A stretch of DNA of 64,000 nucleotides. It comes from Botryllus schlosseri. Lineage: Eukaryota. Below, piece after piece: positions 7,664-61,600 of this stretch. The stretch covers positions 37,202,001-37,266,000 of the forward strand of contig CM119371.1 in assembly GCA_051294905.1 (NCBI GenBank), read 5' to 3'. The translations under genes and the position numbers were made by a program. The notes beneath the pieces are model-generated. The model was not told the DNA's origin. It saw only the letters and a program-made list of their open reading frames with translations, and ran no database searches. How positions within the stretch are numbered: position 1 is the stretch's first letter; each line of letters starts with the position of its first letter.

Positions 7664-9961
7664 CCTATCCGGGGGTCGCACACCACTACGCCATCTCCCC
7701 TTTATGACAGTAATCCATAATCTAATGACCCGAGCCTCCAACCTAAGCACTCTCACCCCAAAATCAAATTACACTAACCCTTAACCGTGGACTGAAAGTC
7801 TTGTGAACATAGCAGCTCAACTGACCTTATTGTGAATGTAATCGCACCAACCCTATAAAATAAGCTGCGTGTTACAGAAAGGTTTGATTGCATGGAAGAA
7901 TTGAGTTATTAAACAGAAAATTGCGTGTGAGATTACCACTAATTCCACTCCAGCTCCCGCCTCTTGACTCACTTTTGCCTAAAACAGGGTGTCCAAGTCC
8001 AACCTTTTTAACCAAAGGGAAATATTCGATTAACGAATGATTACAAGGGCCAAAAAGAATATCATATCTTTCTCTCTCTTCATCACTGATGATTTTTTTG
8101 CTGTTTTTCTACATACAATGGTGCTGAGTTGCTAAAATAAATGGTATGAGAAATCAGTGTGCATCAATTCATCAGTCGCGCCAAAAATCTATACCTGCAG
8201 GCTAATTTATTTCTCTGCTCAAGGGTTCCATACTCCTGTAGATGTTTTTAGTGTGATATTTCCAAGTCCAGTGTGTTAGATACTATAACCAATAATTGTC
8301 ACACATAGAAATTTGATACAACAATATAGATTGATCGTAAAAAAATGTGCCCGTCCCAGCTGACTAACAAAATTCGTCTGACATTTGGTTTTTCTGGAAA
8401 GCTTCAACAGGCCCGAGAAATTGGCCGACATGGTAGAGTGGGGTAACTTTGGGCAATCTATTATTTTGCATGTCTTTACACTCTGTTGTTTGTGAAAGAG
8501 TATTTGGTGAGAGTTGACGAGAGAAGTGACTATAATGAGACAAAATAGTATACGTCTGGCCTATTGCATGATTTTTTACCTAAACCCAACAGAAAAATTA
8601 AAGTCAAAAATTTACAAAAATAAGGTCAGTTGTGAACTCTAACGCCTCCCCTGGATTCATCGCTTATCTCAATTTCCACTCATATCTTCCCCTATTGGGA
8701 CTTATAAATAACATATGGGGATTAATTAGGTTATCCCACGGGTTGCGTCAGCAACATTCAGCTTGTTACCGTGATTTATTGCTGATTTCAAGATATTTTA
8801 CTGTTCTTTAAAAGATTACCAGTGAACTCGGCACTTGGTGAATTCGGCCCTTGGGAAATTTTTTACTATAATTTATCTGTACCTCCAAGAATCTGTTCAA
8901 ATAAAATATATTACCATTATTACCAACTATTTTTCAGAATTAGCCTAATAAACTAATATCATTATTATCAAGTGATTTGTCAATATTGTAAGGAGGTCAC
9001 GGCGTGATAAGATCACGTGATCATGGATTGCGTAAGTTATTGAGATAAAGCAACTATAGAATGTAAACATGGAACGGTAACGAACGATTTTGCAGCTTTG
9101 TTCCGCTTCGCTGAGGCTGGAGTGAAGAATTCTTTTGCGTAAGCGACTAGAATTTCTGGCAATCCAAAAGTTAACTTCCAGAGCGCAGAAATTACTGAAT
9201 CTGGGGCGGCATTGCAAAACAACTACTGCACTGCGGAATCAACATTTACCGTCATAATTCGAGAGAAGCGGACAATCGCGATTACAAAACCCTCAATAAC
9301 GATGTCTTCGAGAGCATTTTTACCGCTGACATTGACTTACCGCAAAACGTAGGAATCGATAGAAAACGTGAACGATCTGCGTCACGAACGTCACTATTCG
9401 CGAAGTTCGGTATTACAAAATTGAAATTAGCGCAGATTTCTCGCGGTAACTTACCGCTTAGCTTCTAGCTGGTGGAGTTGAATCCGCGCTGAAAATTGCA
9501 GCTTTTTGAACTGCAAAATCTTAATATTCTACTTCAATAAAGTAAAGAAGTGAGGCAGTAATCGATCTAAAAGGAAAAAGGGCATGTCCTGTAAGTTACC
9601 CAATTGGGTTGTATTTCATAGGCCACTGTTAGTAAAATCAAGCGAAATAAGGCAGTGGCGACATATAATGCTTATGAATTGAATTCTCATATATGGACCA
9701 GTAAGTGCGTGGACTGAGTAGGCTACCTCGCCGTTTAAAGCATGTATGAATATAACGGGGACTTGAGCTCTATGTCGGAAGCATGCTATTATAACCTACC
9801 GAGGTTAGTAATCTCTTGCCAAATAGATTTTTTGATATCCACTTTTTAACTTTGGCTAGCATATCGTGTGGTCTTGGTCGCCTTGTCAATAAGTAATTCG
9901 CTGCCGAACGGTAGAATTCAGTCCGATTCGGTAGGCCTATAAAGTCGTTGCGAATTACGAT

Positions 9962-12476
9962 CACGGCCGGGTCAGATCATGTCAGGTGATACAGGCCATA
10001 TTTCCACCATCTTGGATTGTCATGAAGATAGGCTGCCTTACAGAGCTGTGTTTTCTGATTTCAGAAAATCAAATTTCATCAAAAAAGGTCTTCTTGAACC
10101 GAAGCTATGACCGTCCAAAAATTGCTATTTTTGTGATCGCTCAAGCGGAAAAAATATCAGAAATTTATACTTGTAGTTTAAATTTGCTATATTTCGGTCA
10201 AATTAGGGTTGTTGAGAGTGACACTTACACACTTGTTCATTTATATCCTGCTTGATACTTTTTCGATTTCTTCGACACTTGGAGTTGCTTAGTCTGACCT
10301 TTAACCTTGTGATTTTGTTCATGTCTTTGAAAATCACTCACGCGTGACTTCATTTTCAATTGCAGATATCTCTTGGTGACTAGGTGATGTCATCAAGTGT
10401 AAGGTATCATTGGAAAGCTCTTGACAAGAGCTTTTAAAAACAAAAATAACATTAGTTACTTTTGAATCGTAACATACCATAAGAGCGCCATGAAGCTAGC
10501 TTGCAAATTTATTCAAAATCCTCCCCCTTTTCAACAAGAGCAGTTGAAAAAGTTGTGAAATTTTATGAAAACAACGAACATAGCAGGTTGATGCCAGGGA
10601 TGAAAGACCGAATTAGCATTAAAAAGAATGTGTATCAACAAAAACGTCTACTTTTATGTACTCTGAAAGAATTCCATATAAACAGCAAAACCCGGATGCA
10701 AAAATTGGATTCACAAAATTTTGTGAATTGAGGCCGAAATGGTGTGTTAGTGCAGGATCATCTGGAACACATGCCGTATGTGTCTGTACCATACATCAAA
10801 ATGTTGTTCTTTTGCTGCATGCTGCCCGCATTGAAGACATTACGAACGATAATCAACCTAAATGTAACAGTATTGGGGAGAGAGTATAGGTAAAGCTACT
10901 GCTGCAGAAGCGGGAATTCAGATCAGCGATGATAGCAGGCGCACCAGCCTACTGCGTATCAGGCCTGCCCCACACCACACACAGTCGATAGTAGCACATG
11001 GGCTGCAAGAGATGTCAGTAACCTCAGATCGTATGCCGCTACACACAGTCTATTGTCACTAATTTGCATCACTAATAACAAAATACTAAAATGCAAATGT
11101 ATGGCGAAATATTGGACATAAAATCGGCATTTTAAAACAAAACGGTTTCGATTTCAACATGGAAGCTGTTTCGACCCTGGCTGGCTACGTCACTTCATTT
11201 ATGTGCATTGCGGTAGTTATTAACGTAGGGTAGGAAGTACTGATTCAAGAAGTCTGAGCTATCGCGGCGGTTTCCTCAAAAATCACTAAAAGACAAATGA
11301 CTAGCTGAACACATGTTTGTTAATAACTGCATACTTTCCAGCACCAAACGGAACCATTGGTCTATTGCCGACGGCTAAATGAATAGGAGAAATATTTGCT
11401 TATGACATCACAATCAAGCGGTGTACAGTATTACACTTGAGATAACAGCGTACCATATTGCTCATTAACCTGTGCGTCAACCTGTACTGACCCATAAACC
11501 TGTCTTTGTGATAGCTAGCCATCGGCTCATTGTAATTCGGTTCTGGTACACCCCTGTACACCCCATCCGAGTGGTACACCCTGTGCAAATTCTGGTACAC
11601 CCTAGGGTGTACGACAACCCCGGTTGAAGAGCACTGGTGTAGAGTACATAAAACATCGCATCTTATCCTGTCAGTTGTGAATTCTGAAGTGTTGTGGAAG
11701 TATTGTGTGTCACCTCAAACTGTGTAGCAAAATTTTCTCAAATTTTCAAAAATATCTCAAATTATTGTCAGCATAATTTATGTCAGCAATTATCTGTCTG
11801 AGTTATACTGACTACCTTATGTGTAAAACACTTGGCACGGTACTGTATATAGAATAAAGGTTGAATGAGTTGCTTTACAGAGTTTGCTCTTGTTGAAAAG
11901 GGGGAGGATTTTGAATAAATTTGCAAGCTAGCTTCATGGCGCTCTTATGGTATGTTACGATTCAAAAGTAACTAATGTTATTTTTGTTTTTAAAAGCTCT
12001 TGTCAAGAGCTTTCCAATGATACCTTACACTTGATGACATCACCTGGTCACCAAGAGATATTTGCAATCGAAAATGAAGTCACGCATGAGTGATTTTCAA
12101 ATACATCAACAAAAAAGCGAGGTTAAAGGTCAGACTATGCAACCCCAGGTGTCAAAGAAGGCGAAAAAGTGTCAAGCAGGACATAAATGAACAAATGTGA
12201 AAGTGTTACCTTCAACAACCCTAATTTGAACGAATTGTAGCAAATTCAAATTACATATGTAAATTTCTGACATTTTTTCCGCTTGAGTGATCACAAAAAC
12301 AGCAATTTTTAAACGGCCATATCTTCGGTTCTACTCATCCGATTTCGATGGAATTTATTTTTTTGAAAGCAGAAGTAAAAGTTTTTTAACCATGCCAATT
12401 TTAATGACAATCTGAGATGGTGGAGGTACATTTTGAAATTTTTCTGGATCACCTGACATGATCTGACCCGGCCATG
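9962..12476. mobile_element. Long-TIR foldback DNA transposon derivative (~580-bp arms)
   Basis: CACGGCCGGGTCAGATCATGTCAGGTGAT and its inverse at ~12448-12476. Arms ~9962-10544 and ~11886-12476. No clear TSD. Confidence 0.8.
10540..10840 (+). pseudogene. Frameshifted transposase N-terminal fragment (Sola-like, assignment tentative)
   Basis: FYENNEHSRLMPGMKD...QKRLLLCTLKE, frameshift near 10678, then KIGFTKFCELRPKWCVSAGSSGTHAVCVCTIHQNV. I associate these motifs with a widespread invertebrate DDE transposase family. Confidence 0.65.
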
Positions 12477-12712
12477 TTTCCAGAATATTATACATGTATT
12501 GCTCCAACTGTATTATCCTCATACGAAGTTAAAACTCAATACACGCGTGATACTTGACGCAGCGGCCTAAAGCAGACAAACTATAATGTACCGTACGCCT
12601 GTAATTTAGTTCTCTTCAGAGCAAATACCACAAACAATTAGGGTATTTCCATTTCCCTGTATGTAAAAGATTATCGCAGCTAAATTACAAATCGTTGCTG
12701 ACCAGTGACCAC

Positions 12713-14222
12713 CAGAGTTGGATCACTGTAATTGAATGTAATTCATTACATTTTTCAATATAATTGTAATGTAATTGTAATTGAAGCATTTTTATTTTGT
12801 GTAATTGTAATTGTAATTGTAATTTGACAAAAATTTTGCTCAATTACAATTTCAATTACATTAAATTGCTATTGAGACCTGACAAGCACTATATAAAATA
12901 ATTGACTTATAATGCATTCTCTTTAAATGTCGACAAGGAATTTGGTGGATCCATTCGCGGAAGCCCTTGACTTTTTATTTTTACCGCTGTGCTGGCCTCG
13001 GCTGCCATTGTATACAATTTTTAGATTACTAACCAACGGATGGATTCGCAACACGTGACTCACGATTGAATACGCCGAGAAGCGAACTGCTGAGCCGGCT
13101 AAAAGCAGCAGAATTGATCGTCCCATAGCTGGCGATCCAAGCGTCGAAATTTGATATGTATGGTCCTAATCGAAAGCTAGTGTCGCACTGATTCCGCTAT
13201 AAAAGTATATTTCCAGGCAATGGTACCATCCCAAAATAGTCGTGAAAGTCTGGGAATCGGCATTGTTCTGAACAATCCCTGGGCGTAATTGGTAATTGTT
13301 GTGGTCATGCTGCTGCAGCGCTCTCACTTTTCAGAACAGTCGGCCTTAAACGGCTATTTTGGAGCAGTTACATTGCCCTGACGAGATTTTATTTTGTATT
13401 TTCGGAATTAGTACATCAATAGCTTACGATAAAGAACAGATGCATCAAATTTGGACGCATGGATCGCCAGCTCTAGGACTACAAAGTTTGCTGCTTTTAG
13501 CCGGCTCTGCAGTACGTTTGTCGGTGCATTCATCCGTGACTCACATCTTGCGCATCTATCCGTGGGTTGGCAATCTATCATACGATTTCAGATCACGATG
13601 CTGCATCGTTACTTCGTCTGGCTAACTAACCAGACCACTGGATATTATATAACGTCTAATCTGACAAAGCACGGTTTTGTTTTTACTCCTCATCCTAATT
13701 CCTACGTCCCTCGATAAAAATAATATTATTCCTTTAATTATATACTATATACGCAAATCCAACACATGCATATATTATAATACTTTTTCAACGACATACT
13801 GCACCCTATCCTTAATCCTAACCCATAGGAAATTAGGTAAATAACATTTTACATTTCCAATTACGTGAGCCATAATTACCGAGCATACAAAACACGCTTA
13901 TATTACGTCACAATGACATCTTACATAGCATACTATGTAGGCACATAAACGCATTTATTACTACACAATCTGAACTAGACTTGAATTGTTGTTAAATACG
14001 ACGCTACGGTTGTCAAGGAGCACGGTTGAATTTATGATTATTCAATTACATGTTCAACAGCAGCAATTGTAATTGTAATGTAATTGAAGCATGCAAGGAG
14101 TAATTGTAATTGTAATTTGATATTTTTAGCATGGAGTAATTGTGATGTAATTGAAACATGCAGGAAAGTAATTGTAATTGTAATTGTCATTGAACTGAAA
14201 TAATGTAATTGATCCAACTCTG
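12713..14222. mobile_element. hAT-like non-autonomous element with (GTAATT)n subterminal arrays
   Basis: TIR CAGAGTTGGATCA and perfect 8-bp TSD gtgaccac. Carries an internal palindromic passenger at ~13022-13580. Near-identical inverted copy at 27457-30011. Confidence 0.9.
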
Positions 14223-16180
14223 GTGACCACACAGCATTATAAACCCTCATTTGATGCCATCTTTTACTGAGATTATCGACTAGACGAAATCACAAATTAG
14301 CGCCTTGATTGCTAAACTTTGTGTTGCGTCTGGAATTATGAGAGTTTACGTGAGTTCAAAGTCCTCCTGCGTGAGCTGGCCGCAAAATGATTTGAAATAC
14401 CAATATTTACATTATGCGGTAATCGAATTCGAGAGAGCTCGTTACCGCTGGTGGAGATTCCGATTTACCGCATTGTTTTGTAATGTCCCCCCTGGTCTTG
14501 ATCGAAAGCTATTGTCGCACTGATTTCAAAAATATGAATAAAACTATGGTCACGCTCCAGTCTTTGACGAAAAATCACCCTCAACATCTGGAATGTGCAT
14601 TGTTCAGAACAATCGGATATCCGCGACACAATGGCCATAACAATGACCCGTTGCGACTCTACGATTGTTCGAACAATGCCGATATTTCAGACTTGGAGGG
14701 CCGATTCTAGGTTGATCAGTGTCTGGTCATATTTTCATTTATATTTTCGGGATCCGTTCGACAGTAGTTTTCGATCAATACCAGATTCAGTAATTGCTGC
14801 GCTCTGGAAGATAGCTTTTGGACTATCAGAAATCCTACAGTCGCTTACGCAAAACAATTCTCCACTTCAGCGAAGCAGAACGAAGCTGCAAAATTGGTCG
14901 TTGGTGTTCCATGTTTACATTCTATAAAGCAACGCTCACTAATCGACCACGTGTGGTCTGCTCGTTATTGTAACTGTAGGTTGGGGAGGGATGATGTTAG
15001 GGTTGGGGAGGGTTAGGTTCAAAGCTGTGGTTAGGGTAGCCCAATCTGTAACCACAATAAGGCAGTTCAAAATTCACTGACTACGTTATAAAATTGTTAG
15101 ATTGGCCAAATCAATGCTGCACGCTAAATTTGGCTCAATTCCAACCATTAGATGCGAAGTTCTTGCATCAAAAGGTTTTGGATTTGATATTAAAAAATAA
15201 ATAATTCAAATTTTATGCCCACCCTGTAAAATTGTTAGGCTGCCAGTAGAGACGATCACACCAAATTGGGATCAATTTCAACCACTAGAAGCGATGTTGT
15301 TGCAGTAGAAAAATTTGGATTTGACTAGAATAGTATTTACGGCGGCTAGTCCTTACATTATTTATTATAGAATCATAGAGTTAATCATTTTTGTACTGCA
15401 ATAGCTTTGCTTCCAGGGGTTGGAATTGAGCCGAATTTGGCGTGCATCATCTCCACTGACAGCCTAACAAATTTATGGGGTAGACTGAAAATTCTAGAAA
15501 TTTTATTTTTCATTTTTTAAGTAATAAATCGAAATATTTCTACCATAGGAATATCGCTTCTACCTGTTGGATTTGGGCCAAATTTGGTGTGCAGTGTTGT
15601 TTTAGCCAACCTAACAATTTTGTCAAGTAGCCAGTGAAATTTTAAAAGGTTTTTTTTGTTGAACAACCCTAATGCACAAATTAGTATTCCAGCATTTATA
15701 AATGTTGAAATAGAGGTAGTCAGGTAGTATATGAAAAAGACAACTCGAGATAGTGAAGCTAGTAGATCAATCCACCTGTGTACTACGGAAAAGCAGAAAT
15801 ACTTCGTAACTGATGACCTCATCGAGCGTGATAAGTAGAGCCGGGAAAATCCAGTATTAGGCTTCGAGTCGAGTGATCACGACTTTACAGATGTGTCATC
15901 TCAACTAACGTGCGCAGCTTTGTACTAATGGTTTTGTATGTTGTGTTATGATCAATCAAGATTAACAGCCTTACACAGTCAAAAATTGCATCAAAATTAT
16001 TATTATCGTTAATAAATTGACTTTTAGCGACAAGAAAGATCGTATCATTATTAGAGTTAGCAAACGTTGTTACAAAATCTTTTAGAAATTTGTGCCTAAC
16101 ATTTTGCGCTTAAAGACTTCAAGTACTATGTTACCTCAATTGCTAGATATAGATGGAATCAGTAGCCATCATTTCAACAA

Positions 16181-18814
16181 ATGAGCGTTACAGACTCTCG
16201 TATTCTAACTATTCATCGTGACTTGAAATATCGTTTAGGTGATATATACAAGAGTGGGGAAGGATCAGAGGATATGCATTCCGGCGTCAAATATCATGAA
16301 TGCGATGTGTGTGGGAAGGCATTTACTGGGAAGGGTAGCCTGAAGCTTCATATGAAGACGCATGATGAAGTCAAGAACAATGAATGCAATGTGTGTGGAA
16401 AAGCTTTTACTCAGAAGGGTAACCTCAAGCTTCATATGAAGATCCATGCTGGCATCAAAAATCATGAATGTGCTGTGTGTGGAAAAGCGTTTACTCAGAA
16501 GGGTAGCCTCAAACTTCACATGGAGCTCCATGCTGGCATCAAAAATTATGAATGTGCTGTCTGTGGGAAAGCATTTACTGGGAAAGGTAGCCTGAAGCTT
16601 CATACGAAGACGCATGATGAAGTCAACAACCACGAATGCAATGTGTGTGGAAAAGCTTTTACTCAGAAGGGTAACCTCGAGCTTCATATGGAGATGCATG
16701 CTGGCATCAAAAATCATGAATGTGCTGTGTGTGGGAAAGCCTTTACTCAGAAGGGTAGCCTGAATCTTCATATGGAGATGCATGCTGGCATCAAAAATCA
16801 TGAATGTGCTGTCTGTGGGAAAGCATTTACTGGGAAGGGTAGCCAGAAGCTTCATATGAAGACGCATGAGGAAGTAAAGAACCATGAATGCAATGTGTGT
16901 GGAAAAGCTTTTACTCAGAAGGGTAACCTCAAGCTTCATATGAAGATCCATGCTGGCATCCAAAATCATGAATGTGCTGTGTGTGGGAAAGCATTTACTG
17001 GGAAGGGTAGCCTGAAGCTTCATATGAAGACGCATGAGGAAGTAAAGAACCATGAATGCAATGTGTGTGGAAAAGCTTTTACTCAGAAGGGTAACCTCAA
17101 GCTTCACATGAAGATCCATGCTGGCATCAAAAATCATGAATGTGCTGTGTGTGGGAAAGCATTTACTCGGAAGGGTAGCCTCAAACTTCATATGGACACG
17201 CATGCTGGCATCAAAAATCACCAATGTGCTGTGTGTGGAAAAGCATTTACTCAGAAGGGTAACCTCAAACTTCATAGGAAGATCCATGCTGGCATCAAAA
17301 ATCATGAATGTGCTGTGTGTGGAAAAGCATTTACTCAGAAGGGTAGCCTCAAACTTCATATGGAGATCCATGCTGAAATCAAAAATCAGGAATGTGCTGT
17401 TTGTGGGAAAGCATTTACTGGAAAGGGTAGCCTGAAGCTTCATATGAAGACGCATGATGAAGTCAAGAACCATGAATGCAATGTGTGTGGAAAAGCTTTT
17501 ACTCAGAAGGGTAACCTCAAGCTTCATATGGAGATCCATGCTGGCATCAAAAATCATGAATGTGCTGTGTGTGGGAAAGCATTTACTCAGAAGGGTAACC
17601 TCAAACTTCATAGGAAGATCCATGCTGGCATCAAAAATCATGAATGTGCAGTGTGTGGGAAAGCATTTACTCAGAAGGGTAGCCTGAAGCTTCATATGAA
17701 GACGCATGAAGTCAAGAACCATAAATGCAATGTGTGTGGAAAAGCTTTTACTCAAAAGGGTAACCTCAAGCTTCATATGAAGATCCATCCTGGCATCAAA
17801 AATCATGAATGTGCTGTGTGTGGAAAAGCATTTACTCAGAAGGGTAGCCTCAAACTTCATACGGAGATCCATGCTGGCATCAAAAATCATGAATGTGCAG
17901 TGTGTGGGAAAGCATTTACTCAGAAGGGTTGCCTGAAGCCTCATATGAAGACGCATGATGAAGTCAAGAACCATGAATGCAATGTGTGTGGAAAAGCTTT
18001 TACTCAGAAGGGTAACCGCAAACGTCATAGGAAGATCCATGCTGGCATCAAAAATCATGAATGTGGAGTGTGTGGGAAAGCATTTACTCAGAAGGGTAGC
18101 ATGAAGCTTCATATGAAGACGCATGAAGTCAAGAACCATAAATGCAATGTGTGTGGAAAAGCTTTTACTCAAAAGGGTAACCTCAAGCTTCATATGAAGA
18201 TCCATCCTGGCGTCAAAAATCATGAATGTGCTGTGTGTGGAAAAGCATTTACTCAGAAGGGTAGCCTCAAACTTCATACGGAGATCCATGCTGGCATCAA
18301 AAATCATGAATGTGCAGTGTGTGGGAAAGCATTTACTCAGAAGGGTTGCCTGAAGCCTCATATGAAGACGCATGATGAAGTCAAGAACCATGAATGCAAT
18401 GTGTGTGGAAAAGCTTTTACTCAGAAGGGTAACCTCAGGCTTCATATGGTGATGCATGCTGGCATCAAAAATCATGAATGTGCTGTCTGTGGGAAAGCCT
18501 TTACTCAGAAGGGTACCCTGAAGCTTCATATGGAGATGCATGCTGGCATCAAAAATCATGAATGTGCTGTCTGTGGGAAAGCATTTACTGGGAAGGGTAG
18601 CCTGAAGCTTCATATGAAGATCCATGCTGGCATACAAAATCATGAATGCGCTGTGTGTGGAAAAGCATTTACTCAATCGGGTCACCTCAAACTTCATATG
18701 GAGATGCATGTTGGCGTCAGAAATCATGAATGTTGTGTGTGTGGAAAAGCATTTACTCAGAAGGGGAACCTCAAACTTCATATGGAGATGCATACCGGCG
18801 TCAAAAAATCTTAA
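16181..18814 (+). CDS. Tandem C2H2 zinc-finger protein, 30 fingers (probably the terminal exon starting at 16239)
   Basis: 877-aa ORF with 30 CxxCGKAFTxKGxLKLHxxxH units at an 84-bp period. Branch-like ttctaac at 16203 and tttAG at 16237-16238 suggest splicing. Confidence 0.9.
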   Translation: MSVTDSRILTIHRDLKYRLGDIYKSGEGSEDMHSGVKYHECDVCGKAFTGKGSLKLHMKTHDEVKNNECNVCGKAFTQKGNLKLHMKIHAGIKNHECAVCGKAFTQKGSLKLHMELHAGIKNYECAVCGKAFTGKGSLKLHTKTHDEVNNHECNVCGKAFTQKGNLELHMEMHAGIKNHECAVCGKAFTQKGSLNLHMEMHAGIKNHECAVCGKAFTGKGSQKLHMKTHEEVKNHECNVCGKAFTQKGNLKLHMKIHAGIQNHECAVCGKAFTGKGSLKLHMKTHEEVKNHECNVCGKAFTQKGNLKLHMKIHAGIKNHECAVCGKAFTRKGSLKLHMDTHAGIKNHQCAVCGKAFTQKGNLKLHRKIHAGIKNHECAVCGKAFTQKGSLKLHMEIHAEIKNQECAVCGKAFTGKGSLKLHMKTHDEVKNHECNVCGKAFTQKGNLKLHMEIHAGIKNHECAVCGKAFTQKGNLKLHRKIHAGIKNHECAVCGKAFTQKGSLKLHMKTHEVKNHKCNVCGKAFTQKGNLKLHMKIHPGIKNHECAVCGKAFTQKGSLKLHTEIHAGIKNHECAVCGKAFTQKGCLKPHMKTHDEVKNHECNVCGKAFTQKGNRKRHRKIHAGIKNHECGVCGKAFTQKGSMKLHMKTHEVKNHKCNVCGKAFTQKGNLKLHMKIHPGVKNHECAVCGKAFTQKGSLKLHTEIHAGIKNHECAVCGKAFTQKGCLKPHMKTHDEVKNHECNVCGKAFTQKGNLRLHMVMHAGIKNHECAVCGKAFTQKGTLKLHMEMHAGIKNHECAVCGKAFTGKGSLKLHMKIHAGIQNHECAVCGKAFTQSGHLKLHMEMHVGVRNHECCVCGKAFTQKGNLKLHMEMHTGVKKS

Positions 18815-23061: not shown

Positions 23062-24052
23062 AACTTTTACGAAAAAGTATCGGTTATAAAGGAATCAAAA
23101 TTTCTGTGAAAGCATAATACTCAGAATTTTATTTCCGTTTTGCTAATCAAATAACAATTACCATACCGGAACAGTACATGAAGATAGCTCGCTAATTCTA
23201 TAGTATCACAGCAATGTCCTCCAATAGTGCGGTAAGTGACTTATATTTTCTCGTCGGCAAGTTAAAATACATACAGATTCTGCTGAATGACGCCTTCCAG
23301 AAGGACCATGATATGGCATACCCACTTCGCCTGCAACGAAATGCCGTTTCATTTTCATCGCCTGCCCTATTATTGTTATCTTCTATAATCATATAATACG
23401 CCACTATAATAGCTATTATATCATAAATCATCGCTGGTATTCACCGACCGTGCGCATTGTGCAGCGATTATATACCGGTATATTCATCGCTTCGTACGGC
23501 AACGAACGCAAGACCGTCACGCAAGTATCCAAGATATTCACTAATCAGGCCAAACATATTAAGACGTCCAATTAGTCACAGAGTCCGTTATAAGTATTCA
23601 ACCTCCAATACTCCGACTCATTCCCATCCATAAGCATGCATTAAAGTTAAACCAACCAAACACTAAACTTTCCACCGTCTGAATTCCATGTGGGATTATT
23701 AATGATACACGTAACAATGGGAAGCTCCCTCCGCAAAGCGGAGCGTGACCTATCTAAAGGGAGTTGAAAATATTATTGCGCGCAGTGTAAATAGAGTAGT
23801 TCAACTTATATAGATATTTCGGTATATCAATGCACTAATACCGGTATAATATCTCATATTTATGGTATTATGGGCAAAAATACCATAAATATCCATTTTT
23901 ACAAGATAATTGCTGAAAAACCACGCAAACAAAATATGTCGCGGATGAATATTAATTAGGCATTTAAATCAGTCGTCACTCCATCCTACAGTCTCTATAA
24001 TGAAATACAGGCAAACCGCGAGCGCAGCTAGTGGCCAATTATAGAGATTCAC

Positions 24053-24080
24053 CATAGAATGTAAACGTTTACATTCTATA
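24053..24080. other. TIR-only palindrome (14+14 bp) with 7-bp TSD; candidate excision footprint
   Basis: gattcac-CATAGAATGTAAAC/GTTTACATTCTATA-gattcac. The arms match the termini of 9055-14926. Confidence 0.8.
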
Positions 24081-24410
24081 GATTCACTAAAAATTCCTTC
24101 TGCTGACACAAGCGTGGTCGGTGGATTTTAATATAAGTCGATTCCAGTGCAGACAGATGGAAATTAGTGCGGCCTCTACCTAATATAGAAAATCTTTCAT
24201 CGCGATAGTTTTTAGCGCAAGTTGCATTCTCAGTCAAATGCTTGCCGATGACAGAGTTCATAGCCATGGCCTGATTACGTTCTAGTAATCGCAGATCAGT
24301 TACGGCTGCGTCTTCGCGAGAGTCCAATGCGCGTGATCTAATAACGCTCGGAACATGTTGTTTGATGCGTTCCTGCAAGCGCTGAGTTGTTCTTCCCACG
24401 TACCGACAAT
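24081..24410 (-). mobile_element. Penelope-like retroelement GIY-YIG endonuclease fragment
   Basis: C..YVGRTTQRLQERIKQH...IGKHL...FSILGRGRTNFHLSALESTYIKIHRPRLCQQKEF, typical of the C-terminal GIY-YIG of PLEs. Confidence 0.75.
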
Positions 24411-36178: not shown

Positions 36179-37864
36179 TCAACAAAATTTCACAGTCCAT
36201 TTTCTGTCTGCCCACTTTGGGTGAACTAATATCCGATCCCCGCTTTCGAGAGAAATATAGTAAAGTGTCTCAGTGTCTTTTGACATGCTGACTACATGGT
36301 CGGGGTTGTGATGACTGACATACTCCAATCTTTGTTCTTTTATCGGGATTTTTAGGAGACGGTAAATCATCATTTTCAGGGCGCCTACGGTCATGGAATG
36401 GGGAAGTTTTTTTTCGAGAGGTCGCAATTCTGGTTTGTCGGGTACGACGATAGTGACTTGAAGTAAATTCGACTTGAGTGCTGTTGATTTTATGAGGAAT
36501 TCACCATCTTCCATTGCGCCGTGAACTTTGACAAGCTCTAAATATCTGGGATGGTCGTTTTGGAAGCGAGACGACGGATTATTCTTAACAGGGTCTTGAT
36601 TCCCGCCACTTTCTCTCCAGTATTTGCCGTAACGTTTCATGTAGTCCATCTCGGCGCCTTGCCGTTCCGTCGCGTCCACGGCGCTACGATTAAGCATTTT
36701 AAGTCCTCGAATTTTTGCGATGATTATCTCTCTCATTGTTTCGCTCGATTCCTTTTCCAGAACAGGGTTGCTGCGGAAATTTAACTCGTTCAAAACCGGT
36801 AATTTGTTGAGTTGATCAAATATATCTTCGTTACAAAATTTGTTACCGCTCAGCGACAGATTTGTTAACGCGGGAAAGTCGGCTAAATCGATACACGCTT
36901 GATCCAACGAACAATTATTCAGTATCAATTTTTCAAGTTTTCGAAGACTCGCTAAATTTTTGACATGTTCCCAACTTTCTACAGGATTGCCGGTCAAGTT
37001 GAGCACTCTCAAGTGACAGAAAATTTCATGTTCGGGTTGCGTTATCGCAGATATATTATTCATACCAAGGTGAAGCTCGCAGATTTGAGGCCACATTGAC
37101 GATATCGACATCGCGTTAATCCAAGTCAAACCACAGTTGTTTAAAATGATGATTCGTAGGGAGCTGAAATCATGCGCCATATCTGCCGGGGATTTTGGAA
37201 TTTGAAGTTTATTTTCCGATAGATTCAACTGCGTGAGATTGCAAAGTTGTTTTGATATTCCGGCGATACTTTCCCATTCGTGGAACAGATTTTTAGACAA
37301 ATCCAGCTCTTCTATATTCGGAGCACGATTTTCAAGGAAATCATTGTCTCCAACATGAGAAATATCTTGCATTCTTAAACTGACTGCTCGCAGATTGCTC
37401 AAATTTTTGAAAACTTTGTGAGCTTTCTCCATTCCCACTGCCTCAATTTTCATTTTGTGATGAGTGACTGGATTTGATAAATACGTCTCGACGTTCTCCA
37501 ATCCCGATAATCCAATATCTGAGCCAGCGTAGCGATCTAAGATCGCAGTTGCTATCGAAATTCCGGCCGAAATCTTGTGCGGTTTCACAAACGAACCACC
37601 AGTCTCGTGCGAGCATTTAAAATACACAACACCGTTTTTAGTACCATTATGTTTTCCGCGGCTTGGTTCATCCCATTCCACGCCTACCCAGTCGCCTTTA
37701 GTTGGCGGTACGGGTCCCAGGTATCTGACCGTCCCGATGTCACCCCCGCTTGAAATTCTCTGGCCCAGGTAAAGTATTCCTTCTGCTCCCATTTTGAATT
37801 CTACTCGCGAAGGAGATCTGAAGTCCTGCTGAACCACAATCAACCTTGTCAAAACACAGGTCAT
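36179..37864 (-). CDS. TBCE: Tubulin-specific chaperone E, single coding exon (likely start at 37792, MGAEG)
   Basis: CAP-Gly (GTVRYLGPVPPTKGDWVGVEWDEPSRGKHNG), LRR series, ERQGAEMDY...HPRY motif and C-terminal ubiquitin-like domain (KKLPHSMTVGALK). Uninterrupted ORF. Confidence 0.95.
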   Translation of the reverse strand: MTCVLTRLIVVQQDFRSPSRVEFKMGAEGILYLGQRISSGGDIGTVRYLGPVPPTKGDWVGVEWDEPSRGKHNGTKNGVVYFKCSHETGGSFVKPHKISAGISIATAILDRYAGSDIGLSGLENVETYLSNPVTHHKMKIEAVGMEKAHKVFKNLSNLRAVSLRMQDISHVGDNDFLENRAPNIEELDLSKNLFHEWESIAGISKQLCNLTQLNLSENKLQIPKSPADMAHDFSSLRIIILNNCGLTWINAMSISSMWPQICELHLGMNNISAITQPEHEIFCHLRVLNLTGNPVESWEHVKNLASLRKLEKLILNNCSLDQACIDLADFPALTNLSLSGNKFCNEDIFDQLNKLPVLNELNFRSNPVLEKESSETMREIIIAKIRGLKMLNRSAVDATERQGAEMDYMKRYGKYWRESGGNQDPVKNNPSSRFQNDHPRYLELVKVHGAMEDGEFLIKSTALKSNLLQVTIVVPDKPELRPLEKKLPHSMTVGALKMMIYRLLKIPIKEQRLEYVSHHNPDHVVSMSKDTETLYYISLESGDRILVHPKWADRKWTVKFC

Positions 37865-41987: not shown

Positions 41988-42866
41988 CGAGACACGATTA
42001 CCGAAAACATTTCATATTCCAGTAGCCTGACTGACCAACCAACCAAAACCAACCAGCCAGCCAACCAACAGCCAACCATAGAAATAACCAGAGTTGGTCA
42101 GCATACGGCAACGGAGTTCTTCCAGTTTTTCGAAGTAATCAGGCACGTTTATCCTACTTGCACTACTTACTCAAGTTATGAAGAGGCTCTTGGAGGTACA
42201 GGAGTTCATAACTCAAAAAAGACAATTTACCTAGAATGACAGTTATCCGTATAAGTTCCACGTCTGCTATAGAAACTTGAAAAATGTGTCATAAATCAAG
42301 ATGACCACAGAAGAAGATCGTTTACTCTGAGAACCCGGTACAGTAAACACAGCATTCGGCAGAATGTTTATTCTGAGTCTGACTGTGATGGATTAGACTT
42401 GTTCCAGGGGGTCTCACCATAGCCCTGGGAGAATTGAAGTGTTTTGACAAGCCTATAGTTCGCAGAGTGGGATTTTTGTCAGTTGTGGCTGTAATGTTGT
42501 TATTGCATTGTGACGTGTTCGCGGTAAAGCAGGCTACACTAAACACCAGACTTTGATCATTGCAGCGAAATATAGGCAATCTAATTCTAATCTACTTCCT
42601 GGTGCTCCTACAAATGCTACAGGAGGACTGTATTGAGCGAAACGAGTCAAGCTTGCTGTACAGATATTTGCCATTCTCGTGCTTTTGATAATGATGTGAT
42701 ACGAATTGTACAATATTTTTAATTCGTGATTAATTGCCGAGTTTTTGCGAATTCAGTCATTTTATTTCTCATCTAATTTGAAAGTCTGAAAGTTTTCTCT
42801 TACAGTTTCGTAGTTAGTTGATACGAACGGACTATATAGGTCTACCAAAGTCTACTATGATCATGC

Positions 42867-42902
42867 TATAGATAACTAACCTACCTAGGTTAGTTATCTA
42901 TA
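42867..42902. other. TIR-only palindrome (17+2+17 bp) with 7-bp TSD; candidate P-type excision footprint
   Basis: atcatgc-TATAGATAACTAACCTA-cc-TAGGTTAGTTATCTATA-atcatac. The arms are identical to the termini of 58025-58621. Confidence 0.85.
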
Positions 42903-43968
42903 ATCATACGGTCTTAGCCGATTTTCAACTTTAACCCAAGTCGGCAGATGTCGGTAGAGAGAAACTTTTTTATTTCTTGCAGACACGAGTATCGTATCAG
43001 AATCTGACCACATTTCCAGCAAAGAACCAATTTTATTCGTAAGTTGCGTGAAAAGTGCAGTTTAACCGTAATAATTTGAGGCGCGTAGTTAGGCCAGTAG
43101 TAGTTGAGCCATAAAAGCTTATAGGCCTACGGGAAGAGTAGTCCTCATTGATATTCAAAGGGTTCCCAGGTTATCATATTTAGAGATCCGGAAAGTATGA
43201 CACTTTCCGTAGGCTGCAAAAGGTACTAAAGCGGACGAGAAAACGGCGTATTTTTATATTTATAGCGCTAATTTCGTTGGGTTGGCTAAAAAAGGTCATT
43301 TCTCCGACTTGACTCCCGAAATACCCGCTTTTACCTTGAACAAGGTCATTTTTCCAATTCAACCCCCGAAATACCAGTCGACGGTGGGTTCGGCCCGATA
43401 TTTACCTTAATTCATGGTCTTTTGGGGCATTTTAGGCTAAAAAGGACGACAAATTGCCAAAAGGAGGACATTTCTTGAAAAAGGAGGACAAATCCTCCTA
43501 AATGAGGGCGTATGGTAACTCCATATTCGAGTAGAAGTAGAGGTAAAGTTGTAAATTTATCCTGGAGAATAAGTAAAAGTAGTGATTTCTATGGGAGGTC
43601 TGGTTTTGCCTAAAAACAGATAAATGTAAGTAAAAACTGATGAATTCAAAAACACTAAACAGCCGAGGAAGTAGCACAAGTAAGCCGAGAGTACTGCAGG
43701 TAGTAGCGTCTAATTAAGTGGCCTCTAATTAAGTACAAGTATAAGTAGCGATTTTGAAGTCAGTGAAGGTAGAAATACGGTCTAAAATGATAACCGCTCT
43801 AGTGAGCAGTGCAAGTGTCAAAAACTACTCGAGTATAATTAGACGTACTACCGTGACTATTTACTCAAGTAAAGCTGACGATTTTAAAGTAAGTAAATAA
43901 GTACGAATTCTAGGACTAGTTTTGCCTAATAAACTGAAAACTGTCAAATATAGAAGTATAGTTTAAAC

Positions 43969-57952: not shown

Positions 57953-58024
57953 CTGATGACACTACGGTGGAATTGCCGAGAACATATCCAGGTACAATGA
58001 TAGAGCGAAAAATGTCTGTTTCAC

Positions 58025-58621
58025 TATAGATAACTAACCTACGGATAGATGCGCAACACGTGATTCACGGTCGAGTGACGCTACAGTCGCAGATTTGTTG
58101 TTGCTTCATAGCATGAAACGGCAACGTAATTGCTAATCCCATAGATGACGACCCTAGCGCTCAAGTTTAATAAAGTTGATCTTATTTGAAAGCTGTAGTC
58201 GCGCTGATTATGATAATATATATCAAAATCTGACCAGGGCAATGGAACCCCCTCGAAATACCTCTCAAAGGCTGAAAATCGGCATTGTTCTGAACAATCG
58301 CAACCCCGCAAGGACCATTGTTATGGTCTTTGTGCTGCGTCGTTGCGATTGTTTGGAACAATGCAGATTTTCAGACTTTGAAGGCTATTTCGGGGTGGTT
58401 CCATTGCCTTGATGAAAATTTAATCTATATTATCAGAATCAGCGCGGCTGTAACTTTCGAATAATATCAACGTTAATAAATTTGAGCGCTCGGGTCGTCA
58501 TCTATGGGATTAACAATTACATTGTCATTTCATGCTATGAAGCGACAACAAATCTGCGACTGTAGCATCACTCGACCGTGAATCACGTGATGCGCATCTA
58601 TCCGTAGGTTAGTTATCTATA
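58025..58621. mobile_element. P-superfamily-like foldback MITE (almost entirely palindromic)
   Basis: TATAGATAACTAACCTACGGATAGATGCGCA...TCCGTAGGTTAGTTATCTATA, ~280-bp arms, perfect 7-bp TSD gtttcac. Related pieces at ~13022-13580, ~24410-24700 and ~46300-46630. Confidence 0.85.
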
Positions 58622-61600
58622 GTTTCACACCCTTGTACCACCCGTGATATACGGGCGTGGTTATACACCCGTGGTACACCCGTATATCAGGGGTGGTGCA
58701 CGGGTGGAAATACACAGTCTTTTTGCTAAGAGTGCACTTCGTAACAAACCACCTCCGGAAACAGAACCACATAAGATAAACTGCAGCAAAACATGTCGAT
58801 AATCTTTTAATAGAAGAGGCTCCGATGATTCATCGTTGTGGGTTTGGGTCAAAAAATGTTCAGGTTCAAGTGGGATTTGTCTAAAAACACAGGCACTTGT
58901 TGCATAAGTAAGGAAACACGTGAATACGTAGGGCAAAATCAGAAGTTTCAATAAGAAATAGTTTTGTGTCAAAACTGTCTAGAAGAAATTGAAGTATAGG
59001 CTAAAAACTGAATCACTCCAGTAAGTGTTGACAAGGAACATTGACAGACATTAAAACGAGATATCTTTAATAAAATTGGCGATCGCTCGTATAAGTTGAC
59101 TGAAAAAGCGGTCATTTTCCGAGTCGGTACCTAGAAACCAATTTTGGTTGGGTTGACCTTTTTTTAGTCAATCTACGTAGCAATTACAGTACAACCCATT
59201 TTTACGTGTATTTGTGGACGATATGGCCTTTTTCGGTTGTGTGTGTGAACTCGTCCAACAATCAACGTAATAAAAGAGTCCGAATTGCTAAAAAAGAGGA
59301 CATTCGGGCGTCCTCGGATGACAGTTAAGTTTTCTTGAAAAAAGAGGACGGATCCTAATGAAAGAGTCTCTTAAGAATGATCATTTGTGTTAAGTTTAAT
59401 ATAAACATATGAAACATGCTTGAGAAAATACGATTGTTGATGTACAAAATTGTTTTCAAATCTCTATTAGTTACTGACGATTAACCCAGACAAGTGTCAG
59501 CCAATAATATTCGGGTTCATTTCAATATCGGTATACCATTCAGTTGTACTTGAAAAAAGCAAACATGCTACGTTACCGATCAAGGCTGTTCTGCAGCAAA
59601 ACATACCGATAATCTTTTAATATCAGCGGCACCGATGATTCATCGTTATAAACACAACGTGGCTGAACATCATACCGAGATGAACAATCACAAATTAAAT
59701 CCAATTAAGAATTAATGAAGACTTGGGCCAGATGCGGACAACTGGAGTCAAGTGCCGCTTCTAATTATTTGTTTACGAGTTCGAGCCTTCAGTACGGTGA
59801 GGTCATCAATCACGAAAAGCTACTCACCATAAAAGGAGGTTTTTACATCTATTTTCAATAAAATCATTTAGAAGGTACCTATACCGGATCTGGTCAAAGC
59901 AGTCAACGTTGCTACTCAAGTAAAAGTAGACGTAAGACACTAAATTCTTACTCAAATGCAAGTAAAAGTGACAAGATGTCTCACAAATTCTTCAAGTGGA
60001 AGTAATGTAGAAGGCAGTGGATTCAATCGTGGGGTCTCACGCTTGGAGCAGATGATGATCGGATGTGGCTACTCTCGAATTTGCGAGATGCATCTTCCCG
60101 ACTAACGCAAAATGATCAATGACACTATAAATGTATACTATAATCTTTCCAATTCTCCACTAGTTGCTGACGATTACCCCTGACGAGTGCCAGGCGAAAA
60201 TATTCGGGTTCATTTCAATATGAATTCAATTGTATATTAAAGTTCTGTACCTCCAAGAAACTCTTCAAATATGGGTAGGATGTTGGGAAATAGATTCAGA
60301 AGTGGCATACAAAATATATATTAGGTCACGAAAATGAGTATTGACACTGCAAATAGCGCAATTTTTCAAATTATATTCCGTTACCGTATTACAGGGGCTA
60401 TTTTCCATAGTTTTTTTGACAACTACAGTCATAAGAGTGATGCAAACTAATCTCTGCTGTACAAAAATCCAAAAAGAAAGTCGTTCTGCCTAAAATCTGT
60501 TCAAGTGCGAACGTAGTATAGTCTAAAAACATTAACAGAGCAAATAGTGCAAGTAGACACTGCCCCCTTAAGTATTATGTTGGGTTACCATATTATAAGA
60601 TCAAAAAATATGACAATTTTTTCAAGTTACAACAAGAGACATATCAATGGAAAATTTATACAGATAATGGTGATCGCACGGTAGGCTGACTAAAAAGTTC
60701 AATTTACCGCGTCGGTACCTTAAAGCCGGGATTTCACAGACAGTTTCCGTTGGGTTGACCTTTTTTGTAATCACGGCAGTTCTACAAAAAAGCAGGTTTT
60801 CACATGTACTTTGTAGCGAATTGGCCATTTTTAGTCGCATCTGTATAGTCGCCTAAGACTCAAAGCAAAAGGAGAGGACGGATTGCGAAAAAAGAAGACA
60901 TTTCGCCATCCTCCGAGGATATTTTTGCTTTACCGCAAAGAGGACAAATGGTATCCCTATAGTATTATGAAAAGGTAGCAGTACTTCATCCTTGTCGAAA
61001 TCGAAAGAACATTTTGATGTCATGTATTGAACGTACGAACATATTCGAGAAAAGCATTTTGACGTACAGAGTACGCGTACGAATGCGACATTGGCGCCAT
61101 GGAACGCAAAATTTGAATCGGATAATCTCAAACTAAACTCTCCGCAAGCCCGACTTAAAATCGTTGGATGATTCCATGACCTCAGCTCGGAATAATACGG
61201 CGATAGTGACGTGTCAATCAACCGGTCATTGCGCGTAAACAGAGGCCATTGTGACGAATTCGCTTCAGACCGAACGAATCAAAACATGGGTTTATGCGAA
61301 GGTCAAAAGAGCGATAAGTTCGGGTGATTGACTGAGCTTAAGTCCCCAGTTCAATTGTTTAGGTATCCAGCAGATTTCGACACGTAGTGAATTCTAGTTG
61401 TTTAATCAGACCAATTAGAGTGGAATGCTAGTTATATAATTCTAATCCTATTCGTGGAATGTTTTAATTCTCTAAATTCAATTCAAATTTAATTTCTGGT
61501 TTTCATAAAAATGCTACAGGACTGTATCGCAAGAAACGAGCCGAGCTCACTGTACATACATTCGCCATTTTCCTGCTTGTGAGGATGAACTCTGAGTTGA

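Follow-up and report, generated by a model that had tools for sequence, protein, structure and literature searches.

The window, i.e., the whole 64,000-nucleotide stretch of Botryllus schlosseri DNA analyzed here, combines ordinary host genes with scars and elements of transposons. The features on which the following analysis draws are:

16166-18814, plus strand: exon with a long C2H2 zinc-finger array, an ordinary host gene
24053..24080 (with flanks 24046-24087), no strand: second scar of the window, 28 bp, of the TATAGAATGTAAAC family, another TATAG-ended family
36182-37789, minus strand: TBCE gene, intronless, an ordinary host gene
42860..42866, plus strand: left copy of the 7-bp target-site duplication, atcatgc, whose position 6 probably carries a mutation
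42867..42884, plus strand: left arm, the first 18 nt of a transposon end, by sequence match to the window element
42885, no strand: single non-arm base, C, which forms a CCTA duplication together with neighbouring bases
42886..42902, minus strand: right arm, the first 17 nt of a transposon end, by sequence match to the window element
42903..42909, plus strand: right copy of the 7-bp target-site duplication, atcatac, which pairs with atcatgc
58025..58621, no strand: non-autonomous element (MITE) of the scar family, 597 bp, a near-perfect hairpin with 288-bp arms

The palindrome at 42867-42902 is 36 bp long and consists of 18 nt of the left end of the 58025-58621 element, a C, and 17 nt of its right end, although it can equally be read as 17+cc+17. 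The two flanking 7-mers are alike at 6 of 7 positions. The target consensus of the family, taken from 44 perfect duplications, is GTnnnAC, and 88% of these duplications have A as their sixth base; the left copy is therefore probably the mutated one. The terminal 15-mer has four exact matches in the window, all of them in the scar and the ends of the element; when up to two mismatches are allowed there are six, whereas chance predicts 0.16 and 100 shuffles never yielded as many. Thus, the palindrome with its 7-bp target duplication (6/7), described in an earlier note made from the window alone, is genuine, its arms matching the ends of the element well above chance. The host was also rightly taken to be a non-insect animal: it is an ascidian, and the TBCE protein of the window is closest to that of Styela clava (58% identity, 695 bits; next match 474 bits). 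A flank search of the genome found no paralogue spanning the scar. A read contig beginning at 42873 agrees with the assembly, which bears on the assembly only. No allele joints or loose ends at 42867 or 58025 were listed in four repeat-swamped read runs, three of them from a single sample, perhaps the source; a small-share metagenome run gave short repeat pieces, which carry no evidential weight.

The MITE at 58025-58621 is the type of element whose excision leaves the 36-bp scar. It is flanked by a perfect 7-bp duplication (58018-58024 and 58622-58628), its first 26 nt are identical to those of two transposase-coding copies, L077 and L139, and about 99 nt are 86–88% alike to the ends of L139 and L142. 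There are at least 40 near-full-length relatives (all 40 scored among 2994 candidates), and the intact ends of the family give 649 exact 26-nt matches genome-wide, corresponding to about 325 elements. The second scar of the window also carries a perfect 7-bp duplication. An element of its TATAGAATGTAAAC family, TATAG-ended and with a perfect 7-bp duplication, occupies 9055-14926; its length of 5.9 kb is owed to nested inverted-repeat elements at 10003-12424 and 13020-13579.

Two facing exact 15-nt ends within 60 bp of each other were found at 277 sites of the genome, and a reversed control pattern at none; since 15 exact nt are needed per arm, shorter or mutated scars are uncounted. The lengths are 30–35 bp at 26 sites, 36 bp at 175 (by subtraction), 37 bp at 29, and 38–60 bp at 47, so that scars of 36–37 bp make up 204 of the 277. 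Only 36 matches measured 61–430 bp, and many of these represent a scar plus a neighbouring end, or one-sided deletions. The 7-bp duplication is preserved at 6–7 of 7 positions in 14 of 15 scars of a first set, in 25 of 28 scars of a 36-bp set (the two sets share nine sites), and in 38 of the 47 long scars of 38–60 bp. The flanks of the 28 examined 36-bp scars are mutually unrelated. In three of these 28 (L005, L283, and L287), an additional TA separates the scar from one of the two target copies. Host repeats carry some scars along as passive copies; for this reason, scar counts overstate the number of independent events. At one scar site within a host repeat, empty paralogues occur at 22 of 25 loci and contain the 7-mer only once, which confirms that the target was single prior to insertion. 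No full element sharing flanks with a scar was found among the genome paralogues of scarred sites; for two scar sites in host repeats, empty paralogues were found and a full-element copy was not. Fixation of the scars in the assembly suggests that excision took place in the germline.

The transposase partner of the family was found from paired family ends. Ends spaced 5.5–6.7 kb apart enclose a P transposase in two long copies: L077 (G000:C4:6979230-6984759), of 5530 bp, with a perfect 7-bp duplication and inverted repeats of about 400 bp, and L139, of 6693 bp, with a perfect 7-bp duplication and the same two-gene layout. Of the two, L139 has the ends closest to those of the window MITE. L077 matches PF21787, the N-terminal part of the P-type RNase H, at 33.6 bits, above the 24.6 cut-off; its match to PF21788, the GTP-binding insertion, comes from a single short exon and is under the 24.8 cut-off (E 3e-4, 21.6 bits). 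The motifs DEMK, VADG, DPQH, and QDVLE, located in short exons, provide the series D, D, D(2)H, E, and the core gene ends about 50 codons past the catalytic glutamate. The first exon opens with a CxxxxC pattern that looks THAP-like; Pfam gave no match there.

Next after the core gene in L077 lies a second, convergent and intronless gene of 300 aa. When its predicted structure (pLDDT 81.7) was compared with 48,161 chains, the best match was to residues 617–734 of the Drosophila P transposase (6p5a_B; Z 10.3, rmsd 2.5, 114 residues aligned), with the next chain at Z 6.8. Foldseek likewise ranked the C-terminal domain first, yet with an E of 0.35. An HMM built from the C-termini of one-gene P transposases scored four of five ORFs of the second-gene type above all 1005 shuffled or reversed controls. 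Sequence searches with the second gene against PDB, Pfam, longer proteins, and Atlas (with a relative) gave no match, and pairwise BLAST gave an E of 0.028 to one one-gene P transposase and nothing to another. Its 33 relatives elsewhere are all at most 331 aa long. In our opinion, the putative transposase source is a two-gene P element, in which an intron-rich core gene is accompanied by a convergent gene predicted to have the P C-terminal-domain fold. The long inverted repeat of L077 (895-945 and 5657-5700) contains the first transposase codons, and the right-hand repeat directs the transposase start sequence into the upstream region of the second gene. Judged from this arrangement, both genes may share a promoter located in the inverted repeat.

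On sequence grounds, the window-scar family can be assigned to the P superfamily. Its target-site duplication of 7 bp is one of the two lengths, 7 or 8 bp, expected of the superfamily. CA...TG termini are usual for P elements, and other P families of this genome do end in CA, whereas the family considered here has TATAG...CTATA ends. The hATw elements are a hAT subgroup with a 7-bp duplication; a hAT reading of the ends was dropped, as the coding copies match P-type domains and no hAT family. CACTA and Academ readings were dropped in view of the 7-bp duplication and the P-type enclosed gene. The TATAG ends of the family are absent around the 30 best PF21787 loci and from 20 wider stretches around other P matches. 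The proposal of the earlier note that the scar is a P-type excision footprint is supported: its ends are shared with elements coding for P transposase, and its junction classes resemble the footprints of the Drosophila P element (PMC2895639).

Several further elements with TATAG ends deserve mention. L142-L145 are multi-copy non-autonomous elements of 4–6 kb with large inverted duplications of the transposase region. An ORF of 307–312 aa, for which membrane segments are predicted, lies in two inverted copies between family ends at L080-L081 (G000:C3:29896455-29907244); it may be a captured host gene.

The depth of the cut can be read from the junctions. Positions 16–22 of the family end are T16 A17 C18 G19 G20 A21 T22. 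The TACGTA junction, present at 89 identical sites, is a join at the CG microhomology of positions 18–19 and requires an 18-nt arm, whereas the TACGGA junction, with 69 exact sites, requires one arm of at least 20 nt (for both counts, the patterns were shortened by one base on either side). In the 37-bp class, 23 of 29 scars are exact, and one arm must be at least 19 nt long; the 33-bp class has 14 exact members. The 32-bp TA join, which is the product expected of 17-nt tails, accounts for only 8 exact cases, or 9 including one variant, of the 277. The TCCGGA junction was found at none of 86 sites, and the 42-bp AT join expected of tails of at least 22 nt at 1 of 277. Among scars up to about 82 bp, only 10 sites have arms of at least 22 nt; several of these are explained by templated copies, and two represent aborted gap repair in which the other side is exactly 21 nt.

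The longer scars tell the same limit in another way. In 43 non-redundant long scars, left after removal of four passive duplicates (L086, L088, L095, and L119), the share of arms extending one base further is 0.70 at 19 nt, 0.54 at 20, and 0.37 at 21, with no arm beyond 24 nt; arms of 17 nt number 18 of 86. Filler-free joins of 20+20, 21+20, and 21+18 occur. At four loci with one-sided deletions, the shorter arm retains 15, 17, 19, or 20 nt and the duplication is undamaged. When arms whose 21st base could be templated were left out, 13 of 29 carried the 21st base of the element, which does not differ significantly from 0.3 (p = 0.065) and bears on the choice between 20 and 21. Since 69 junctions need at least 20 nt, the 17-nt product is rare, and only 10 sites reach 22, we infer that the stagger of the window-scar family is about 20–21 nt, deeper than the 17 nt of Drosophila P.

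The earlier note had derived a 17-nt stagger from the 17+17 appearance of the window scar and expected arm lengths to show a sharp ceiling near 17 bp. The sharp ceiling is there; for the window-scar family, its arm lengths put it at about 20–21 nt, and the 17-nt figure is not supported. The junction of the window scar itself, TACCTA, is uncommon (2 of 50 among the first matches listed); it recurs at G000:C2:22307510, next to a 7/7 duplication, and a 100% match exists at C13:19692245. Base 42885 with its neighbours is read as a short templated insertion (the CCTA duplication) or as a point mutation of the modal junction. The scar fits a CCTA duplication followed by a TA join, in which case it is a trimmed minority product that looks like 17+17 by chance.

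Other P families of the same genome serve as internal controls. The CAGGGATATC-ended one-gene family, with an 8-bp duplication, has left 439 scars, many of them passive; by eye, in 50 listed matches, 27 of the 34 arms reaching 17 nt stop there, two stop at 18, five at 19, and none at 20, so that this family does have its footprint ceiling at 17 nt. One-gene families ending in CA(T/G)GGCC, with a 7-bp duplication, have 64 scars; in 25 of these, chosen towards long ones, 11 arms stop at 18 and 3 of 50 at 19, none being longer, and the duplication is preserved at 6–7 of 7 positions in 24 of the 25. A sister TATAG family, recognized by a diagnostic base, has 58 scars with a spectrum like that of the window-scar family, including a 20+21 join. 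The third TATAG family, TATAGAATGTAAAC, has 71 exact scars, mostly of 28 bp and formed through a 4-bp palindrome at positions 13–16, and its tail can therefore be stated only as at least 16 nt. The six end types together give 966 exact scar matches, some of them passive copies.

The sixth end type, CAATG, has 57 scars with arms mostly of 16–18 nt by eye; longer ones are ambiguous, as TA runs hamper the reading. The duplications flanking these scars are of 7 or 8 bp. This family has a split transposase too, namely a truncated one accompanied by a convergent ORF that resembles the C-terminal domain (L051 1468-8088; L053 2865-7246). A split gene as the cause of the deeper cut is weakened by these arms and is insufficient by itself, because the CAATG family shows mostly 16–18 nt. 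Taken together, the arm-length ceiling appears to be family-specific, at about 17, 18, and 20–21 nt among the P families of this genome; it tracks the family and not the repair system, because CA-ended families stop at 17 or 18 in the same genome. A short site within a dispersed host repeat (L223-L247; e.g., G000:C3:16727610-16727955) carries scars of four P end types in different copies, namely those of two TATAGAT families, TATAGAATG, and CAGGGATATC, and is an insertion hot spot common to several P families. The CAGGGATATC scar at this site was later multiplied passively.

These controls bear on the possibility that the cut lies at 17 nt, as in Drosophila, and that one to four extra bases were filled in prior to joining, with the sister chromatid or another copy as template. 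The 17–18-nt arms of the window scar, the frequency of 17 among the arms of long scars (18/86), and the existence of aborted gap-repair products are all compatible with such copying. The terminal TA join of 32 bp, however, should then dominate, and it accounts for 8–9 of 277; copying would not halt so sharply at 20–21, and other families, whose breaks are mended in the same cell, have arms ending at 17 or 18. We consider a 17-nt cut in this family quite unlikely.

Tn10 nearly precise excision exemplifies a comparable type of event, the collapse of a hairpin. If short direct repeats close to the base of the long hairpin MITE underwent replication slippage or were sites of cruciform cutting, the element could likewise collapse independently of transposase. 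This would suit its 288-bp arms, a perfectly palindromic modal product at a 2-bp repeat, and a TATAGAATGTAAAC family collapsing mostly at its own 4-bp palindrome. Nevertheless, 6-bp repeats in the MITE end predict products of 56 and 70 bp, neither of which is among the 10 long-arm sites, even though base 27 of the MITE is common to 280 intact ends. Moreover, scar lengths form no continuum, the flanks and termini are the templates of the fillers, as in break repair, and every family has its own arm ceiling. A collapse of this kind is, in our opinion, very improbable.

Many identical 36-bp copies had been named beforehand as speaking against excision and for a mobile micro-MITE amplified by P transposase, and formally they exist, as 89 copies at unrelated sites, every one flanked by a separate 7-bp duplication that follows the family consensus. 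There is nevertheless little chance that this explains the palindrome, given that dozens of distinct junctions would each have to move, the sister family independently shows the whole junction spectrum, one-sided intermediates with a short arm of 15–20 nt occur, one junction likewise dominates experimental Drosophila footprints (PMC2895639 Table 1), and a 36-bp unit would lack subterminal binding sites and, with inner cuts 17–21 nt deep, retain little or no duplex. The favoured microhomology join explains the identical copies better.

The closest experimental counterpart is the Drosophila P element, in which donor cleavage is staggered by 17 nt, the order of cleavage being unknown, and the transferred strand loops over the C-terminal domain with its 3′-terminal G in contact with GTP (PMC7776569). 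The commonest short join among its footprints relies on 2 nt of microhomology situated one base away from the end of the 17-nt tail, and blunt joins and templated fillers also occur, under a ceiling of 17 (PMC2895639). In both systems, the two target copies are kept, terminal sequence of both ends is kept up to a sharp ceiling, and the tails are joined bluntly, with templated fillers, or by 1–3 nt of microhomology close to their tips. The transposases share the RNase H and the C-terminal domain fold, and may also share the GTP-binding insertion, whose match is below the cut-off here. The ascidian family differs in its ceiling of about 20–21 nt instead of 17, in its duplication of 7 instead of 8 bp, in carrying the C-terminal domain on a separate convergent gene, and in presenting natural fixed scars instead of laboratory events. 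Its ends are TA...TA, so that its 3′-terminal base is A in place of the G that contacts GTP in Drosophila (PMC7776569).

Galileo, another member of the P superfamily, shares a 7-bp duplication (GTANTAC, compared with GTnnnAC here), long inverted repeats, and foldback-like derivatives, whereas a one-gene transposase is described for it (PMC4168063); the accessible part of that paper yielded no footprint analysis. Zebrafish Pdre2 and THAP9 are likewise excisable P-type elements outside insects, with flanking deletions after excision in cell assays (bioRxiv 10.1101/2024.03.22.586318), unlike the scars described here; the main text of that preprint, as far as available, gives no stagger length for the fish element, and its supplementary junctions could bear on it. 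P elements are known in Ciona (cited in PMC1562414 and PMC3698922). A literature search whose coverage mostly excluded subscription papers found no paper describing two-gene P elements, genomic P footprints in organisms other than Drosophila, or a P stagger that differs from 17.

We therefore favour, with a probability of about 0.78, the reading that the 36-bp palindrome is what repair left at the donor site after a P-superfamily transposon, TATAG-ended and making 7-bp duplications, was cut about 20–21 nt inside its ends. A member of the family would have inserted and duplicated 7 bp, a step demonstrated here. The transposase would then have cut one strand at each end of the element and the other strand some 20–21 nt inside, as arm lengths suggest, and by analogy with the 17-nt Drosophila stagger, 3′ tails of terminal sequence would have remained on the chromosome. 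Being identical, the tails would have been joined by microhomology-mediated end joining, probably by polymerase theta, mostly via the self-complementary CG at positions 18–19, which gives 36 bp; some joins, that of the window scar presumably among them, would have been preceded by short templated synthesis.

With regard to the P superfamily at large, we lean towards the view that a long stagger is conserved across animals while its depth is a family trait. The TA-ended two-gene clade would then cut 21 nt inside, with a 3′-A end and hence a differing end geometry and perhaps a differing cofactor contact. If this is true, the 21-nt cut exceeds the only measured case by four nt. The scars of this one chordate genome indicate a long stagger common to several P families and of varying depth (17, 18, and 20–21 nt), from which concrete predictions for biochemistry and structure follow. 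It should be noted that repeat annotation could mistake such tiny palindromes for micro-MITEs. In the window-scar family there is nearly one scar per surviving element, and the scars constitute a natural data set for end-joining repair. Genome assemblies would thus hold a direct in vivo record of the cut geometry of every P family and of the outcomes of germline end joining.
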